Shown in pieces: positions 149 through 35,914 of a stretch of 64,000 bases of DNA. The translations under genes were made by a program, and so were the position numbers. The first letter of the stretch is position 1. Each line of letters begins with the position of its first letter. The DNA is from Escherichia coli (GTDB taxonomy: Bacteria; Pseudomonadota; Gammaproteobacteria; Enterobacterales; Enterobacteriaceae): NCBI RefSeq assembly GCF_051903065.1, contig NZ_CP178438.1; one strand, 5' to 3'. The notes under the pieces are model-generated. The model did not search any database. It saw nothing but the letters and a program-made list of their open reading frames with translations, and was not told the origin of the DNA.

Positions 149-1153
149 GTGAAACTGGATGAAATCGCTCGGCTGGCGGGAGTGTCGCGGACCACTGCAA
201 GCTATGTTATTAACGGCAAAGCGAAGCAATACCGTGTGAGCGACAAAACCGTTGAAAAAGTCATGGCTGTCGTGCGTGAGCACAATTACCACCCGAACGC
301 CGTGGCAGCTGGGCTTCGTGCTGGACGCACACGTTCTATTGGTCTTGTGATCCCCGATCTGGAGAACACCAGCTATACCCGCATCGCTAACTATCTTGAA
401 CGCCAGGCGCGGCAACGGGGGTATCAACTGCTGATTGCCTGCTCAGAAGATCAGCCAGACAACGAAATGCGCTGTATTGAGCACCTTTTACAGCGTCAGG
501 TCGATGCCATTATTGTTTCGACGTCGTTGCCTCCTGAGCATCCTTTTTATCAACGCTGGGCTAACGACCCGTTCCCGATTGTCGCGCTTGACCGCGCCCT
601 CGATCGTGAACACTTTACCAGCGTGGTTGGTGCCGATCAGGATGATGCCGAAATGCTGGCGGAAGAGTTACGTAAGTTTCCCGCCGAGACGGTGCTTTAT
701 CTTGGCGCGCTGCCGGAGCTTTCTGTCAGCTTCCTGCGTGAACAAGGTTTCCGTACTGCCTGGAAAGATGATCCGCGCGAAGTGCATTTTCTGTATGCCA
801 ACAGCTATGAGCGGGAGGCGGCTGCCCAGTTATTCGAAAAATGGCTGGAAACGCATCCGATGCCGCAGGCGCTGTTCACAACGTCGTTTGCGTTGTTGCA
901 AGGGGTGATGGATGTCACGCTACGTCGCGATGGTAAACTGCCTTCTGACCTGGCAATTGCCACCTTTGGCGATAACGAACTGCTCGACTTCTTACAGTGC
1001 CCGGTGCTGGCAGTGGCTCAACGTCACCGCGATGTCGCAGAGCGTGTGCTGGAGATTGTCCTGGCAAGCCTGGACGAACCACGTAAGCCAAAACCTGGTT
1101 TAACGCGCATTAAACGTAATCTCTATCGCCGCGGCGTGCTCAGCCGTAGCTAA
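149..1153 (+). CDS. cra: Catabolite repressor/activator Cra (FruR), LacI-family regulator
   Basis: 334-codon ORF with GTG start at 149; N-terminal HTH ([15 protein letters not shown]) and periplasmic-binding-like fold typical of LacI/GalR family; matches Cra in length and sequence as recalled. Confidence 0.96.
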
Positions 1154-1169
1154 GCTGCGAACAAAAATA

Positions 1170-1197
1170 CGCGCCAGGTGAATTTCACTCTGGCGCG
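1170..1197 (+). terminator. Inverted repeat (8-bp stem CGCGCCAG/CTGGCGCG, 12-nt loop) 17 nt after cra stop; possible cra 3' hairpin, no U-tract
   Basis: Perfect inverted repeat read directly from sequence; IS1 is inserted immediately 3' of it. Confidence 0.35.
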
Positions 1198-1199
1198 TA
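1191..1199. repeat. IS1 target-site duplication, left copy (TGGCGCGTA)
   Basis: Identical 9-mer found again at 1968-1976, immediately flanking both IS1 ends. Confidence 0.85.
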
Positions 1200-1254
1200 G
1201 GTGATGCTGCCAACTTACTGATTTAGTGTATGATGGTGTTTTTGAGGTGCTCCA

Positions 1255-1530
1255 GTGGCTTCTGTTTCTATCAGCTGTCCCTCCTGTTCAGCTACTGACG
1301 GGGTGGTGCGTAACGGCAAAAGCACCGCCGGACATCAGCGCTATCTCTGCTCTCACTGCCGTAAAACATGGCAACTGCAGTTCACTTACACCGCTTCTCA
1401 ACCCGGTACGCACCAGAAAATCATTGATATGGCCATGAATGGCGTTGGATGCCGGGCAACAGCCCGCATTATGGGCGTTGGCCTCAACACGATTTTACGT
1501 CACTTAAAAAACTCAGGCCGCAGTCGGTAA
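1255..1530 (+). CDS. insA: IS1 InsA (transposition inhibitor / N-terminal part of InsAB' transposase)
   Basis: 91-aa ORF with zinc-finger-like CPSC...CSHC motif and HTH, typical IS1 InsA. Confidence 0.93.
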
Positions 1531-1952
1531 CCTCGCGCATACAGCCGGGCAGTGACGTCATCGTCTGCGCGGAAATGGACGAACAGTGGGGCTATGTCGG
1601 GGCTAAATCGCGCCAGCGCTGGCTGTTTTACGCGTATGACAGGCTCCGGAAGACGGTTGTTGCGCACGTATTCGGTGAACGCACTATGGCGACGCTGGGG
1701 CGTCTTATGAGCCTGCTGTCACCCTTTGACGTGGTGATATGGATGACGGATGGCTGGCCGCTGTATGAATCCCGCCTGAAGGGAAAGCTGCACGTAATCA
1801 GCAAGCGATATACGCAGCGAATTGAGCGGCATAACCTGAATCTGAGGCAGCACCTGGCACGGCTGGGACGGAAGTCGCTGTCGTTCTCAAAATCGGTGGA
1901 GCTGCATGACAAAGTCATCGGGCATTATCTGAACATAAAACACTATCAATAA
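1449..1952 (+). CDS. insB: IS1 InsB reading frame (expressed as InsAB' fusion by -1 frameshift)
   Basis: 167-codon ORF in the -1 frame relative to insA, overlapping its 3' end; matches IS1 InsB. Confidence 0.9.
1504..1514 (+). other. IS1 programmed -1 ribosomal frameshift motif (A6C slippery run)
   Basis: TTAAAAAACTC located in the insA/insB overlap, at the position expected for IS1 frameshifting. Confidence 0.6.
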
Positions 1953-1967
1953 GTTGGAGTCATTACC

Positions 1968-1976
1968 TGGCGCGTA
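1968..1976. repeat. IS1 target-site duplication, right copy (TGGCGCGTA)
   Basis: Direct repeat of 1191-1199. Confidence 0.85.
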
Positions 1977-2450
1977 GAGTACGGGACTGGACATCAATAT
2001 CCTTAAAGTAAATAAGACTATTCCTGACTATTATTGATAAATGCTTTTAAACCCGCCCATTAATTAACTCACCAGCTGAAATTCACAATAATTAAGTGAT
2101 ATCGACAGCGCGTTTTTGCATTATTTTGTTACATGCAGAGATGAATTGCCGATTTAACAAGCACTTTTCTTTGCTTTTGCGCAAACCCGCTGGCATCAAG
2201 CGCTACACAGACGCAACAGGGACTGTTAACCGGGGAAGATATGTCCTAAAATGCCGCTCGCGTCGCAAACTGACACTTTATATTTGCTGTGGAAAATAGT
2301 GAGTCATTTTAAAACGGTGATGACGATGAGGGTTTTTTTCTTACAGCTATTCATAACGTTAATTTGCTTCGCACGTTGGACGTAAAATAAACAACGCTGA
2401 TATTAGCCGTAAACATCGGGTTTTTTACCTCGGTATGCCTTGTGACTGGC

Positions 2451-2480
2451 TTGACAAGCTTTTCCTCCGCTCCGTAAACT
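2451..2480 (+). promoter_or_regulatory. Candidate Pmra promoter of the dcw cluster (-35 TTGACA at 2451-2456, -10 TAAACT at 2475-2480)
   Basis: Consensus -35 hexamer with 18-bp spacer to a -10-like hexamer, about 50 bp upstream of mraZ ATG; position consistent with the described mra promoter. Confidence 0.6.
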
Positions 2481-2487
2481 CCTTTCA

Positions 2488-2512
2488 GTGGGAAATTGTG
2501 GGGCAAAGTGGG
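2488..2512 (+). promoter_or_regulatory. Three direct GTGGG repeats at 10-bp spacing; MraZ operator-like
   Basis: GTGGG at 2488, 2498 and 2508 between the promoter and the mraZ start; MraZ is described as binding direct TGGGN repeats in this position. Confidence 0.6.
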
Positions 2513-2531
2513 AATAAGGGGTGAGGCTGGC

Positions 2532-2991: not shown

Positions 2992-3933
2992 ATGATGGAA
3001 AACTATAAACATACTACGGTGCTGTTGGATGAAGCCGTTAATGGCCTCAATATCCGTCCTGATGGCATCTACATTGATGGGACTTTTGGTCGCGGTGGTC
3101 ACTCACGTCTGATCCTCTCGCAGCTTGGCGAAGAGGGGCGTTTGCTGGCGATCGATCGCGACCCGCAGGCTATCGCCGTTGCGAAGACTATTGATGATCC
3201 GCGCTTCTCCATCATCCACGGACCTTTCTCCGCGCTGGGCGAATACGTTGCCGAGCGCGATCTTATCGGCAAGATCGACGGCATTCTCCTCGATCTTGGT
3301 GTCTCTTCACCGCAACTTGATGATGCTGAACGCGGCTTTTCCTTTATGCGCGATGGTCCGCTGGACATGCGTATGGACCCAACCCGTGGGCAGTCAGCCG
3401 CTGAATGGCTACAAACCGCAGAAGAAGCCGATATCGCCTGGGTATTGAAAACCTATGGTGAAGAGCGTTTTGCCAAACGCATTGCCCGCGCCATTGTCGA
3501 GCGTAACCGCGAACAGCCGATGACCCGCACCAAAGAACTGGCGGAAGTCGTGGCTGCTGCAACGCCGGTGAAAGATAAGTTTAAACATCCCGCGACCCGT
3601 ACCTTCCAGGCGGTGCGCATTTGGGTAAACAGTGAACTGGAGGAGATAGAGCAGGCGCTAAAAAGCTCGCTCAACGTGCTGGCCCCGGGGGGGCGGCTTT
3701 CGATCATCAGCTTCCACTCGCTGGAAGACCGTATTGTGAAACGTTTTATGCGTGAAAACAGCCGCGGTCCGCAAGTTCCGGCAGGGTTACCGATGACTGA
3801 AGAGCAGCTCAAAAAACTGGGTGGCCGTCAGCTGCGAGCACTAGGCAAGTTAATGCCGGGCGAAGAAGAGGTGGCTGAGAACCCTCGTGCCCGTAGTTCA
3901 GTTCTGCGTATTGCAGAGAGGACGAACGCATGA
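2992..3933 (+). CDS. rsmH: 16S rRNA m4C1402 methyltransferase RsmH (MraW)
   Basis: 313-aa product starting [16 protein letters not shown]; SAM-binding motifs; start chosen inside the longer 2863-3933 ORF, one nt after mraZ stop. Confidence 0.95.
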
Positions 3934-4295
3934 TCAGCAGAGTGACAGAAGCTCTAAGCAAAGTTAAAGGATCGATGGGAAGCCACGAGCGCCATGCATT
4001 GCCTGGTGTTATCGGTGACGATCTTTTGCGATTTGGGAAGCTGCCACTCTGCCTGTTCATTTGCATTATTTTGACGGCGGTGACCGTGGTAACCACGGCG
4101 CACCATACCCGTTTACTGACCGCTCAGCGCGAACAACTGGTGCTGGAGCGAGATGCTTTAGACATTGAATGGCGCAACCTGATCCTTGAAGAGAATGCGC
4201 TCGGCGACCATAGCCGGGTGGAAAGGATCGCCACGGAAAAGCTGCAAATGCAGCATGTTGATCCGTCACAAGAAAATATCGTAGTGCAAAAATAA
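3930..4295 (+). CDS. ftsL: Cell division protein FtsL
   Basis: 121-aa bitopic membrane protein with leucine-zipper-like periplasmic region; ATGA overlap with rsmH stop. Confidence 0.95.
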
Positions 4296-9984: not shown

Positions 9985-11301
9985 ATGGCTGATTACCAGG
10001 GTAAAAATGTTGTCATTATCGGCCTGGGCCTCACCGGGCTTTCCTGCGTGGACTTTTTCCTCGCTCGCGGTGTGACGCCGCGCGTTATGGATACGCGTAT
10101 GACACCGCCTGGCCTGGATAAATTACCCGAAGCCGTAGAACGCCACACGGGCAGTCTGAATGATGAATGGCTGATGGCGGCAGATCTGATTGTCGCCAGT
10201 CCCGGTATTGCACTGGCGCATCCATCCTTAAGCGCTGCCGCTGATGCCGGAATCGAAATCGTTGGCGATATCGAGCTGTTCTGTCGCGAAGCACAAGCAC
10301 CGATTGTGGCGATTACCGGTTCTAACGGCAAAAGCACGGTCACCACGCTAGTGGGTGAAATGGCGAAAGCGGCGGGGGTTAACGTTGGTGTGGGTGGCAA
10401 TATTGGCCTGCCTGCGTTGATGCTACTGGATGATGAGTGTGAACTGTACGTGCTGGAACTGTCGAGCTTCCAGCTGGAAACCACCTCCAGCTTACAGGCG
10501 GTAGCAGCGACCATTCTGAACGTGACTGAAGATCATATGGATCGCTATCCGTTTGGTTTACAACAGTATCGTGCAGCAAAACTGCGCATTTACGAAAACG
10601 CGAAAGTTTGCGTGGTTAATGCTGATGATGCCTTAACAATGCCGATTCGCGGTGCGGATGAACGCTGCGTCAGCTTTGGCGTCAACATGGGTGACTATCA
10701 CCTGAATCATCAGCAGGGCGAAACCTGGCTGCGGGTGAAAGGCGAGAAAGTGCTGAACGTGAAAGAAATGAAACTTTCCGGGCAGCATAACTACACCAAT
10801 GCGCTCGCAGCACTGGCACTGGCAGACGCAGCTGGTTTGCCGCGCGCCAGCAGCCTGAAAGCATTAACCACATTCACTGGTCTGCCGCATCGCTTTGAAG
10901 TTGTGCTGGAGCATAACGGCGTACGTTGGATTAACGATTCAAAAGCGACCAACGTCGGCAGTACGGAAGCGGCGCTGAATGGCCTGCACGTAGACGGCAC
11001 GCTGCATTTGTTGCTGGGCGGTGATGGTAAATCGGCGGACTTTAGCCCACTGGCGCGTTACCTGAATGGCGATAACGTACGTCTGTATTGTTTCGGTCGT
11101 GACGGCGCGCAGCTGGCGGCGCTACGCCCGGAAGTGGCAGAACAAACCGAAACTATGGAACAGGCGATGCGCTTGCTGGCTCCGCGTGTTCAGCCGGGCG
11201 ATATGGTTCTGCTCTCCCCGGCCTGTGCCAGCCTTGATCAGTTCAAGAACTTTGAACAACGAGGCAATGAGTTTGCCCGTCTGGCGAAGGAGTTAGGTTG
11301 A
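9985..11301 (+). CDS. murD: UDP-MurNAc-L-Ala:D-Glu ligase MurD
   Basis: 438-aa ORF with Mur ligase P-loop GSNGKSTV. Confidence 0.96.
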
Positions 11302-16883: not shown

Positions 16884-18142
16884 TCAAGGCGACGGACAGA
16901 AAACTGGTAGTAGGACTGGAGATTGGTACCGCGAAGGTTGCCGCTTTAGTAGGGGAAGTTCTGCCCGACGGTATGGTCAATATCATTGGCGTGGGCAGCT
17001 GCCCGTCGCGTGGTATGGATAAAGGCGGGGTGAACGACCTCGAATCCGTGGTCAAGTGCGTACAACGTGCCATTGACCAGGCAGAATTGATGGCAGATTG
17101 TCAGATCTCTTCGGTATATCTGGCGCTTTCTGGTAAGCACATCAGCTGCCAGAATGAAATTGGTATGGTGCCTATTTCTGAAGAAGAAGTGACGCAAGAA
17201 GATGTGGAAAACGTCGTCCATACCGCGAAATCGGTGCGTGTGCGCGATGAGCATCGTGTGCTGCATGTGATCCCGCAAGAGTATGCGATTGACTATCAGG
17301 AAGGGATCAAGAATCCGGTAGGACTTTCGGGCGTGCGGATGCAGGCAAAAGTGCACCTGATCACATGTCACAACGATATGGCGAAAAACATCGTCAAAGC
17401 GGTTGAACGTTGTGGGCTGAAAGTTGACCAACTGATATTTGCCGGACTGGCATCAAGTTATTCGGTATTGACGGAAGATGAACGTGAACTGGGTGTCTGC
17501 GTCGTCGATATCGGTGGTGGTACAATGGATATCGCCGTTTATACCGGTGGGGCATTGCGCCACACTAAGGTAATTCCTTATGCTGGCAATGTCGTGACCA
17601 GTGATATCGCTTACGCCTTTGGCACGCCGCCAAGCGACGCCGAAGCGATTAAAGTTCGCCACGGTTGTGCGCTGGGTTCCATCGTTGGAAAAGATGAGAG
17701 CGTGGAAGTGCCGAGCGTAGGTGGTCGTCCGCCGCGGAGTCTGCAACGTCAGACCCTGGCAGAGGTGATCGAGCCGCGCTATACCGAGCTGCTCAACCTG
17801 GTCAACGAAGAGATATTGCAGTTGCAGGAAAAGCTTCGCCAACAAGGGGTTAAACATCACCTGGCGGCAGGCATTGTATTAACCGGTGGCGCAGCGCAGA
17901 TCGAAGGTCTTGCAGCCTGTGCTCAGCGCGTGTTTCATACGCAAGTGCGTATCGGCGCGCCGCTGAACATTACCGGTTTAACGGATTATGCTCAGGAGCC
18001 GTATTATTCGACGGCGGTGGGATTGCTTCACTATGGGAAAGAGTCACATCTTAACGGTGAAGCTGAAGTAGAAAAACGTGTTACAGCATCAGTTGGCTCG
18101 TGGATCAAGCGACTCAATAGTTGGCTGCGAAAAGAGTTTTAA
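16880..18142 (+). CDS. ftsA: Cell division protein FtsA (actin-like ATPase)
   Basis: 420-aa ORF; ATGA overlap with ftsQ; actin/Hsp70 fold motifs. Confidence 0.97.
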
Positions 18143-18202
18143 TTTTTATGAGGCCGACGATGATTACGGCCTCAGGCGACAGGCACAAATCGGAGAGAAA
18201 CT

Positions 18203-19354
18203 ATGTTTGAACCAATGGAACTTACCAATGACGCGGTGATTAAAGTCATCGGCGTCGGCGGCGGTGGCGGTAATGCTGTTGAACACATGGTGCGTGAGCG
18301 CATTGAAGGTGTTGAATTCTTCGCGGTAAATACCGATGCACAAGCGCTGCGTAAAACAGCGGTTGGACAGACGATTCAAATCGGTAGCGGTATCACCAAA
18401 GGACTGGGCGCTGGCGCTAATCCAGAAGTTGGCCGCAATGCGGCTGATGAGGATCGCGATGCATTGCGTGCGGCGCTGGAAGGTGCAGACATGGTCTTTA
18501 TTGCTGCGGGTATGGGTGGTGGTACCGGTACAGGTGCAGCACCAGTCGTCGCTGAAGTGGCAAAAGATTTGGGTATCCTGACCGTTGCTGTCGTCACTAA
18601 GCCTTTCAACTTTGAAGGCAAGAAGCGTATGGCATTCGCGGAGCAGGGGATCACTGAACTGTCCAAGCATGTGGACTCTCTGATCACTATCCCGAACGAC
18701 AAACTGCTGAAAGTTCTGGGCCGCGGTATCTCCCTGCTGGATGCGTTTGGCGCAGCGAACGATGTACTGAAAGGCGCTGTGCAAGGTATCGCCGAACTGA
18801 TTACTCGTCCGGGTTTGATGAACGTGGACTTTGCAGACGTACGCACCGTAATGTCTGAAATGGGCTACGCAATGATGGGTTCTGGCGTGGCAAGCGGTGA
18901 AGACCGTGCGGAAGAAGCTGCTGAAATGGCTATCTCTTCTCCGCTGCTGGAAGATATCGACCTGTCTGGCGCACGCGGCGTGCTGGTTAACATCACAGCG
19001 GGCTTCGACCTGCGTCTGGATGAGTTCGAAACGGTAGGTAACACCATCCGTGCATTTGCTTCCGACAACGCGACCGTGGTTATCGGTACTTCTCTTGACC
19101 CGGATATGAATGACGAGCTGCGCGTAACTGTTGTTGCGACAGGTATCGGCATGGACAAACGTCCTGAAATCACTCTGGTGACCAATAAGCAGGTTCAGCA
19201 GCCAGTGATGGATCGCTACCAGCAGCACGGGATGGCTCCGCTGACCCAGGAGCAGAAGCCGGTTGCTAAAGTCGTGAATGACAATGCGCCGCAAACTGCG
19301 AAAGAGCCGGATTATCTGGATATCCCAGCATTCCTGCGTAAGCAAGCTGATTAA
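18203..19354 (+). CDS. ftsZ: Cell division GTPase FtsZ
   Basis: 383-aa ORF with tubulin signature GGGTGTG and conserved C-terminal peptide DIPAFLR. Confidence 0.98.
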
Positions 19355-21176: not shown

Positions 21177-23882
21177 ATGCTAATCAAATTATTAACTAAA
21201 GTTTTCGGTAGTCGTAACGATCGCACCCTGCGCCGGATGCGCAAAGTGGTCAACATCATCAATGCCATGGAACCGGAGATGGAAAAACTCTCCGACGAAG
21301 AACTGAAAGGGAAAACCGCAGAGTTTCGTGCACGTCTGGAAAAAGGCGAAGTGCTGGAAAGTCTGATCCCGGAAGCTTTCGCCGTGGTACGTGAGGCAAG
21401 TAAGCGCGTCTTTGGTATGCGTCACTTCGACGTTCAGTTACTCGGCGGTATGGTTCTTAACGAACGCTGCATCGCCGAAATGCGTACCGGTGAAGGTAAA
21501 ACCCTGACCGCAACGCTGCCTGCTTACCTGAACGCACTAACCGGTAAAGGCGTGCATGTAGTTACCGTCAACGACTACCTGGCGCAACGTGACGCCGAAA
21601 ACAACCGTCCGCTGTTTGAATTCCTTGGCCTGACTGTCGGTATCAACCTGCCGGGCATGCCAGCACCGGCAAAGCGCGAAGCTTACGCAGCTGACATCAC
21701 TTACGGTACGAACAACGAATATGGCTTTGACTACCTGCGCGACAATATGGCGTTCAGCCCTGAAGAACGTGTACAGCGTAAACTGCACTATGCGCTGGTG
21801 GACGAAGTGGACTCCATCCTGATCGATGAAGCGCGTACACCGCTGATCATTTCCGGCCCGGCAGAAGACAGCTCGGAAATGTATAAACGCGTGAATAAAA
21901 TTATTCCGCACCTGATCCGTCAGGAAAAAGAAGACTCCGAAACCTTCCAGGGCGAAGGCCACTTCTCGGTGGACGAAAAATCTCGCCAGGTGAACCTGAC
22001 CGAACGTGGTCTGGTGCTGATTGAAGAACTGCTGGTGAAAGAGGGCATCATGGATGAAGGGGAGTCTCTGTACTCTCCGGCCAACATCATGCTGATGCAC
22101 CACGTAACGGCGGCGCTGCGCGCTCATGCGCTGTTTACCCGTGACGTCGACTACATCGTTAAAGATGGTGAAGTTATCATCGTTGACGAACACACCGGTC
22201 GTACCATGCAGGGCCGTCGCTGGTCCGATGGTCTGCACCAGGCTGTGGAAGCGAAAGAAGGTGTGCAGATCCAGAACGAAAACCAAACGCTGGCTTCGAT
22301 CACCTTCCAGAACTACTTCCGTCTGTATGAAAAACTGGCGGGGATGACCGGTACTGCTGATACCGAAGCTTTCGAATTCAGCTCCATCTACAAGCTGGAT
22401 ACCGTCGTTGTTCCGACCAACCGTCCAATGATTCGTAAAGATCTGCCTGACCTGGTCTACATGACTGAAGCGGAAAAAATTCAGGCGATCATTGAAGATA
22501 TCAAAGAACGTACTGCGAAAGGCCAGCCGGTGCTGGTGGGTACAATCTCCATCGAAAAATCGGAGCTGGTGTCAAACGAACTGACCAAAGCCGGTATTAA
22601 GCACAATGTCCTGAACGCCAAATTCCACGCCAACGAAGCGGCGATTGTTGCTCAGGCAGGTTATCCGGCTGCGGTGACTATCGCGACCAACATGGCGGGT
22701 CGTGGTACAGATATTGTGCTCGGTGGTAGCTGGCAGGCAGAAGTTGCCGCGCTGGAAAATCCGACCGCAGAGCAAATTGAAAAAATTAAAGCCGACTGGC
22801 AGGTACGTCACGATGCGGTACTGGCAGCAGGTGGCCTGCATATCATCGGTACCGAGCGTCACGAATCCCGTCGTATCGATAACCAGTTGCGCGGTCGTTC
22901 TGGTCGTCAGGGGGATGCTGGTTCTTCCCGTTTCTACCTGTCGATGGAAGATGCGCTGATGCGTATTTTTGCTTCCGACCGAGTATCCGGCATGATGCGT
23001 AAACTGGGTATGAAGCCAGGCGAAGCCATTGAACACCCGTGGGTGACCAAAGCGATTGCTAACGCCCAGCGTAAAGTTGAAAGCCGTAACTTCGACATTC
23101 GTAAGCAACTGCTGGAATATGATGACGTGGCTAACGATCAGCGTCGCGCCATTTACTCCCAGCGTAACGAATTGCTGGATGTTAGCGATGTGAGCGAAAC
23201 CATTAACAGCATTCGTGAAGATGTGTTCAAAGCGACCATTGATGCCTACATTCCACCACAGTCGCTGGAAGAAATGTGGGATATTCCGGGGCTGCAGGAA
23301 CGTCTGAAGAACGATTTCGACCTCGATTTGCCAATTGCCGAGTGGCTGGATAAAGAACCAGAACTGCATGAAGAGACGCTGCGTGAGCGCATTCTGGCGC
23401 AGTCCATCGAAGTGTATCAGCGTAAAGAAGAAGTGGTTGGTGCTGAGATGATGCGTCACTTCGAGAAAGGCGTCATGCTGCAAACGCTTGACTCCCTGTG
23501 GAAAGAGCACCTGGCAGCGATGGACTATCTGCGTCAGGGTATCCACCTGCGTGGCTACGCACAGAAAGATCCGAAGCAGGAATACAAACGTGAATCGTTC
23601 TCCATGTTTGCAGCGATGCTGGAGTCGTTGAAATATGAAGTTATCAGTACGCTGAGCAAAGTTCAGGTACGTATGCCTGAAGAGGTTGAGGAGCTGGAAC
23701 AACAGCGTCGTATGGAAGCCGAGCGTTTAGCGCAAATGCAGCAGCTTAGCCATCAGGATGACGACTCTGCAGCCGCGGCTGCACTGGCGGCGCAAACCGG
23801 TGAACGCAAAGTAGGACGTAACGATCCTTGCCCGTGCGGTTCTGGTAAAAAATACAAGCAGTGCCATGGTCGCCTGCAATAA
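21177..23882 (+). CDS. secA: Preprotein translocase ATPase SecA
   Basis: 901-aa ORF with DEAD-like motor motifs and C-terminal zinc finger [14 protein letters not shown]. Confidence 0.98.
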
Positions 23883-23900
23883 AAGCTAACAGTTGAAGTA

Positions 23901-23928
23901 AAAGGCGCAGGATTCTGCGCCTTTTTTA
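23901..23928 (+). terminator. Candidate rho-independent terminator after secA
   Basis: GGCGCAG-gatt-CTGCGCC hairpin followed by TTTTTTAT. Confidence 0.6.
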
Positions 23929-23941
23929 TAGGTTTAAGACA

Positions 23942-24331
23942 ATGAAAAAGCTGCAAATTGCGGTAGGTATTATTCGCAACGAGAACAATGAAATCTTTAT
24001 AACGCGTCGCGCAGCAGATGCGCACATGGCGAATAAACTGGAGTTTCCCGGCGGTAAAATTGAAATGGGTGAAACGCCGGAACAGGCGGTGGTGCGTGAA
24101 CTTCAGGAAGAAGTCGGGATTATCCCACAACATTTTTCGCTATTTGAAAAACTGGAATATGAATTCCCGGACAGGCATATAACTCTGTGGTTCTGGCTGG
24201 TCGAAAGCTGGGAAGGGGAGCCGTGGGGTAAAGAAGGGCAACCCGGTAAGTGGATGTCGCTGGTCGGTCTTAATGCCGATGATTTTCCGCCAGCCAATGA
24301 ACCGGTAATTGCGAAGCTTAAACGTCTGTAG
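23942..24331 (+). CDS. mutT: 8-oxo-dGTP diphosphatase MutT (Nudix)
   Basis: 129-aa ORF with intact Nudix box GGKIEMGETPEQAVVRELQEEVGI. Confidence 0.95.
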   Translation: MKKLQIAVGIIRNENNEIFITRRAADAHMANKLEFPGGKIEMGETPEQAVVRELQEEVGIIPQHFSLFEKLEYEFPDRHITLWFWLVESWEGEPWGKEGQPGKWMSLVGLNADDFPPANEPVIAKLKRL

Positions 24332-24332
24332 G

Positions 24333-24528
<196 letters not shown>

Positions 24529-35754: not shown

Positions 35755-35914
35755 TGATTTTTCTGGTAAAAATTATCCAGAAGATGTTGTAAATCAAGCG
35801 CATATAAAAGCGCGGCAACTAAACGTAGAACCTGTCTTATTGAGCTTTCCGGCGAGAGTTCAATGGGACAGGTTCCAGAAAACTCAACGTTATTAGATAG
35901 ATAAGGAATAACCC

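Follow-up and report, generated by a model that had tools for sequence, protein, structure and literature searches.

By definition IS1 is ~768 bp long, with imperfect inverted repeats of ~23 bp at its ends. It inserts through a staggered cut in the target whose repair leaves a duplication, typically of 9 bp and occasionally of 8 bp, and it is reportedly drawn to AT-rich regions, a preference said to have been described by Zerbib et al. in 1985. Its internal promoter, pIRL, is weak and repressed by InsA, and the element is classically polar through Rho-dependent termination. An outward-facing -35 element has been documented in the IS1 inverted repeat (PMC8764528; PMC9330008), and IS1 forms hybrid promoters solely when a -10 element sits at the right distance from it (PMC8764528). 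The region ahead of the dcw cluster has its own precedent: a transposon screen showed a benefit under meropenem for insertions that lie before or within mraZ and bear an outward promoter in dcw orientation (PMC11731830). Here we consider an IS1 copy that lies between cra and mraZ in a 64,000-nucleotide stretch of Escherichia coli DNA, hereafter the window. We hold it highly probable that this copy reflects a simple, recent and lineage-specific transposition into the cra-mraZ spacer, most probably with a neutral or very small effect.

The preliminary description of this DNA reported a complete 768-bp IS1 with its ends, insA, insB and the A6C motif, and all of these features are present (Table 1). 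Length, ends, reading frames with the A6C motif, transposase model, target duplication and identity to a reference copy all mark the element as IS1, its 768 bp being the full length of a complete copy. A repeat finder placed the terminal inverted repeats at 1199-1222 and 1945-1968, with arms of 24 nt that are 79% complementary. InsA matches the NCBIfam model for the IS1/IS1595 Zn domain (NF050000). The IS1 transposase model (NF033558, transpos_IS1) is matched by the InsA part with 91.3 bits over model positions 1-81 and by InsB' with 145.6 bits, above the cutoff of 100. A -1 shift at AAAAAAC would yield a predicted InsAB' fusion of 232 aa.

Table 1. Features of the cra-mraZ region in the window (positions are those of the window).
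Feature	Position	Strand	Details
cra (fruR)	149-1153	+	intact upstream neighbour; 334-aa ORF; WP_000762401.1 in the near-identical genome 23CRST027
Hairpin after cra	1168-1199	+	arms TACGCGCCAG (1168-1177) and CTGGCGCGTA (1190-1199); 10 nt, 100% complementary
Target-site duplication, left copy	1191-1199	.	9 bp, TGGCGCGTA; single in uninterrupted alleles
IS1	1200-1967	+	insA direction is that of cra and mraZ; RefSeq annotation: IS1A-family transposase
IRL, IS1 left inverted repeat	1200-1222	+	canonical left end GGTGATGCTGCCAACTTACTGAT, from 1200
Promoter-like site CTGCCA-16-TATGAT	1207-1234	+	consensus scan; consistent with IS1's own promoter pIRL
insA	1255-1530	+	ORF list, 91 aa; zinc-finger/HTH regulator
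insB' reading frame	1449-1952	+	ORF list; catalytic part of the InsAB' transposase
AAAAAAC, A6C programmed -1 frameshift motif	1506-1512	+	insA to insB'; register checked
IRR, IS1 right inverted repeat	1945-1967	+	ATCAATAAGTTGGAGTCATTACC; canonical right end ...AAGTTGGAGTCATTACC, up to 1967
Target-site duplication, right copy	1968-1976	.	9 bp, TGGCGCGTA; exact match to the left copy
Remaining AT-rich cra-mraZ spacer	1977-2450	+	40% G+C; collinear with K-12, no indels
Pmra, TTGACA-18-TAAACT	2451-2480	+	intact
Pmra with three GTGGG repeats	2451-2515	+	intact

The copy is structurally intact and therefore potentially still mobile, as far as its sequence can tell. It carries a GGGG run (1696-1699) that reads GGG in 23CRST027 and 23CRST031, the two other genomes that hold this insertion, and RefSeq accordingly annotates the IS1 of both, with its 1-bp deletion, as a frameshifted pseudogene. 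The shorter run is either real decay of the IS1 copy or a homopolymer sequencing error. The earlier suggestion that the element makes a hotspot for IS1-mediated rearrangement holds, in the generic sense in which it would hold for any IS copy.

The mark of transposition is plain at both junctions. A 9-bp direct repeat had been said to flank the element, and the two exact copies of TGGCGCGTA that do so are the sole two across 64 kb, against a chance expectation of ~4e-6 for the match of a given 9-mer. The repeat finder called an 11-nt direct repeat, CTGGCGCGTAG, at a spacing of 777 bp; it reads as 11 nt because the terminal C and G of IS1 extend the 9-mer by coincidence. The same 9-mer occurs once at the uninterrupted site of K-12 MG1655 and of strain 14EC033, whose allele is the closest uninterrupted one (99.8% identical), as the insertion reading had anticipated, and K-12 itself lacks the element at this site. 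From cra to mraZ the spacer is 1378 bp long in the window, against 601 bp in K-12; the excess is exactly 777 bp, or 768 + 9, just as first proposed. Once IS1 and one copy of the repeat are taken out, the spacer can be aligned with its K-12 counterpart over 610 bases with 0 indels and 12 SNPs.

These junctions bear directly on whether mis-assembly of repeats could have put IS1 wrongly between cra and mraZ. Such an error is conceivable in a lineage with about 35 IS1 copies, a classic cause of mis-joins, and two RefSeq assemblies are one base off the window in the G-run of the element. Against it, 9 bp that occur once in uninterrupted alleles are exactly duplicated here, the hallmark of genuine transposition; the flanks keep perfect collinearity with K-12; and the same structure stands in two separately deposited complete genomes as well as in the window. 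We therefore regard an artefact as barely credible.

We searched 5426 complete E. coli genomes for both forms of the locus. A 424-nt query for the uninterrupted site (window 1000-1199 joined to 1977-2200) was found contiguous in 5416 of them, K-12 MG1655 included; three of the matching places are on plasmids. Seven genomes held no place with at least 80% of this query covered. Three of the seven are IS1 carriers, and the other four may have other spacer disruptions or assembly breaks. The query for the occupied site (window 900-2300, at least 80% coverage) was covered in three genomes, those of 23CRST027, 23CRST031 and 1585m1. The first two, sister isolates from human faeces in Santo Domingo, Ecuador, match the window at 99.9% with identical junctions, and they alone carry the same insertion (2/5426). 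The alignment to reference genomes that had been proposed thus places the element in one lineage, and the initial view of it as a strain-specific insertion stands. The two junction sequences, for which TCTGGCGCGTAGGTGATGCTGCC and GTCATTACCTGGCGCGTAGAGTACGG are 25-nt k-mers, had no match in 241 million metagenome records, which is weak evidence of rarity, IS copies often breaking short-read contigs. A literature search combining IS1 with mraZ or cra, and using the strain names, returned no paper describing the insertion; it is already known as an annotation, made by PGAP in two RefSeq genomes.

Two substitutions and a single-base indel, the latter in the G-run of IS1, are all that set the window apart from 23CRST027 over 64 kb; the window therefore comes from a very close sibling of that isolate. 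Over 24 kb it is 100% identical to 23CRST027 and 23CRST031, and the next-closest genomes reach 99.5%. One of the substitutions, at 41149 in lpdA, is C in the window and T in 23CRST027, where the RefSeq protein (WP_497752004.1) has a very recent accession, which suggests a variant private to that isolate. The other, at 24343, falls within the first of two naRNA4 matches described below. The carrier lineage is IS1-rich and multidrug-resistant, with about 35 IS1 copies; on the chromosome of 23CRST027 (NZ_AP045789.1) 37 places match IS1, where the median per genome is 11. A Shigella or EIEC origin, considered in view of this IS1 load, was set aside, as an E. coli isolate from faeces matches the window at 100% over 24 kb. 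The plasmid pCRST027 (108,535 bp) carries CTX-M-55, aph(3')-IIa, sul2, tet(A) and floR, several IS26 and IS91-family copies and an IS1 fragment; its first 50 kb contain no carbapenemase gene.

On its left side, the element begins 46 bp past the cra stop codon, directly 3' of a hairpin. As the preliminary description had it, the 9-mer that was duplicated forms the 3' arm of this hairpin, and the positions of the arms bear this out. Because that arm was duplicated by the insertion, the left junction retains the entire hairpin. Its predicted fold on the + strand amounts to -25.4 kcal/mol, compared with -24.4 kcal/mol for the reconstructed uninterrupted site. The stem is G+C-rich, with perfect 10-bp arms and about -22 to -25 kcal/mol; no U-tract follows it on the + strand, where the sequence reads GAGTACGGG in uninterrupted alleles and GGTGATGCT here, so the structure falls outside the definition of an intrinsic (Rho-independent) terminator on that strand, and the terminator scanner did not report it. 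An A-run precedes the hairpin on the + strand. Read on the minus strand, the hairpin has TTTTTGTT, a T5 run, after it and looks terminator-like; a 65-nt minus-strand fold (window 1215 to 1151) gives -30.7 kcal/mol, which includes pairing in the flanks beyond the hairpin. This arrangement would tend to stop leftward transcription from IS1 before it reached cra. A scan of the cra-mraZ spacer showed no evident minus-strand gene or promoter-like site.

We also observed a perfect complementarity of 12 nt between 1168-1179 (TACGCGCCAGGT) and 1965-1976 (ACCTGGCGCGTA), that is, between the 5' arm of the hairpin and the terminal ACC of IS1 with the right repeat. In principle such pairing could loop IS1 out of a read-through RNA; it is probably a coincidence of three extra bases. 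An account of target choice through an IHF site was rejected, as the exact consensus match lies at 1944-1956, within IRR, and the target spacer has none.

Could the element alter cra, through the formation of its mRNA 3' end, the stability of the message or antisense interference from IS1? The insertion lies just 46 bp past the stop codon and immediately after the hairpin, and a hairpin devoid of a + strand U-tract would probably let cra transcripts run on into IS1. Yet the complete hairpin is kept with nearly the same predicted stability, a U-tract is missing downstream both with and without the insertion, the left end of IS1 offers no outward promoter candidate, and the terminator-like minus-strand hairpin with its T-run would keep leftward transcription out of cra. 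In its coding sequence, moreover, cra matches the common allele WP_000762401.1 exactly. We judge an effect on cra very improbable. If the hairpin forms the cra 3' end, it most likely serves as a stabilising stem, and it is unchanged. Since it is complete at the left junction, the altered cra 3'-end formation that was first envisaged is not expected from the hairpin itself.

On the right, the promoter and operator of mraZ had been described as intact and about 480 bp away. Pmra and the three downstream GTGGG repeats, which we take to be the MraZ operator, are indeed unaltered, with Pmra 483 bp and the mraZ start codon 564 bp past the end of IS1. One SNP falls in the promoter spacer (2468, C in the window versus A in K-12); it is shared with 14EC033 and is therefore a natural polymorphism. 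Rfam, at its gathering threshold, recorded no known RNA family in positions 1-2600, and therefore no annotated sRNA or leader is disrupted.

This geometry leaves room for another reading, in which outward transcription from the right end of IS1 adds to Pmra and raises mraZ and dcw expression, with a selectable benefit, for example under a beta-lactam. The transcript would come either from read-through of pIRL or from a weak hybrid promoter, TTGGAG-15-TAGAGT. Several observations suit it: IS1 and dcw share their orientation, an outward -35 is known in the IS1 inverted repeat (PMC8764528; PMC9330008), outward-promoter insertions before mraZ pay off under meropenem (PMC11731830), the carriers are CTX-M-55 isolates, and in strain 1585m1 an IS1 of independent origin lies 25 bp away and points the same way. 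In addition, a scan of the + strand between IS1 and mraZ showed no intrinsic-terminator-like site, so a trickle of read-through is possible.

The promoter itself is a poor candidate, however. An outward -35-like TTGGAG lies at 1954-1959 in IRR, 8 nt from the end of the element, and the best partner in the flank is TAGAGT at 1975-1980, after 15 nt; the two hexamers match in 3/6 and 4/6 positions and stay below the scanner thresholds. A hybrid promoter joining the outward -35 to a flanking -10 would call for 16-18 nt, and the best candidate has 15 nt. The consensus promoter scan reported nothing at either junction, and a scan of both junctions with relaxed criteria gave no outward candidate on the left. 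Also against this reading, pIRL is established as weak and InsA-repressed and IS1 as polar via Rho, Pmra is 483 bp from IS1, and the allele is confined to one lineage among 5426 genomes, with no sign of its recurrent selection. We consider enhanced dcw transcription unlikely. The idea in the preliminary description that transcription might run toward Pmra survives as a possible trickle of read-through, but not as a good outward promoter at the junctions; the consequences that it lists as possible are generic and, on present evidence, mostly unlikely.

The IS1 of strain 1585m1 (NZ_CP086391.1; silver gull, Australia) warrants separate treatment. It lies 25 bp downstream of the window site, at about 3326-4093 of the extracted NZ_CP086391.1 locus (equivalent to window position about 2001), in the same cra-mraZ spacer and the same orientation. 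It nevertheless departs from the window IS1 at 5 positions and bears an IS1B-family annotation, its target duplication is 8 bp (TCAATATC) rather than 9 bp, and its flanking SNP haplotype is unlike that of the window. Given the other site, duplication, IS1 variant and haplotype, it is an independent event. Two IS1 events within 25 bp, among 5426 complete genomes, suggest that the stretch is tolerated and perhaps preferred; two events carry no statistical claim. The insertion site sits at the edge of the AT-rich spacer, of which the first 100 bp have 36% G+C, against 52% for the window. The shared orientation of two insertions 25 bp apart could hint, against neutrality, at local target preference or selection. 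The fullest version of that idea, a recurrent IS1 landing site within some tens of bp past the cra hairpin that feeds dcw transcription and confers a small advantage such as beta-lactam tolerance on a multidrug-resistant lineage rich in IS1, seems to us clearly improbable.

We thus return to a simple, recent transposition of little effect. InsAB' would have cut the target with a 9-bp stagger at TGGCGCGTA, which forms the 3' arm of the hairpin past cra, and repair of that cut would have duplicated the 9-mer. The resulting insertion, one of about 35 IS1 copies in the lineage, most likely persists by drift. A neutral or very small effect is what we infer from its sequence context, because the left junction restores the cra hairpin in full, because Pmra and the MraZ operator are unchanged 483 bp past the right end, because neither junction forms a good hybrid promoter, and because the IS1 promoter is classically weak and InsA-repressed. 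On this footing the insertion is of little import in itself; it offers a useful lineage marker, with a PCR-typable junction for the 23CRST027/031 clone, and one further instance of IS1 expansion among multidrug-resistant commensal E. coli. It would matter more if dcw or cra expression shifted, the dcw promoter region governing essential division and wall-synthesis genes.

Some features elsewhere in the window deserve a record. Rfam places PssrA ('plasmid-encoded Shigella sRNA A') at 18122-18211 (+) with 105.5 bits, at the ftsA-ftsZ junction or ftsZ leader, a chromosomal location to which the family name is ill-suited. Gathering-level matches also comprise STnc40 at 23858-23927 (+), at the secA-mutT junction; two tandem naRNA4 copies at 24331-24524 (+), between mutT and yacG; and tp2 at 35799-35912 (-), antisense between pdhR and aceE. 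RefSeq further annotates a truncated hypothetical-protein pseudogene fragment in the rpnC-panC gap, just past rpnC (window about 60480-60660, RefSeq locus 10719-10898).

Set beside described IS1 insertions, the locus shares its parts and departs in its setting. The IS1 hybrid promoters known for afaA in ST131, acrEF and blaTEM use the same outward -35-like hexamer as the window IS1 (PMC8764528; PMC9330008), whereas the window flank supplies just TAGAGT at 15 nt, and the nearest gene start, that of mraZ, is 564 bp off, with the strong promoter of mraZ itself in between; a working hybrid promoter is thus not predicted at this junction. The 9-bp target duplication is the usual one for IS1. The IS1A of K-12, in the nhaR-rpsT region, has the same 768 bp, inverted repeats, insA, insB' and A6C site and is 767/768 (99.87%) identical; the lone difference, at IS1 position 444, gives Arg here and Ser in K-12 InsB, the K-12 residue being deduced from the nucleotide difference. 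Copies on many plasmids of E. coli, Salmonella and Citrobacter are 100% identical. Apart from position 444 in K-12, then, what distinguishes the window IS1 from the K-12 and plasmid copies is its insertion site, and this near-complete identity to IS1A and complete identity to plasmid copies therefore identify it, at the sequence level, as the ubiquitous enterobacterial IS1 rather than a variant.
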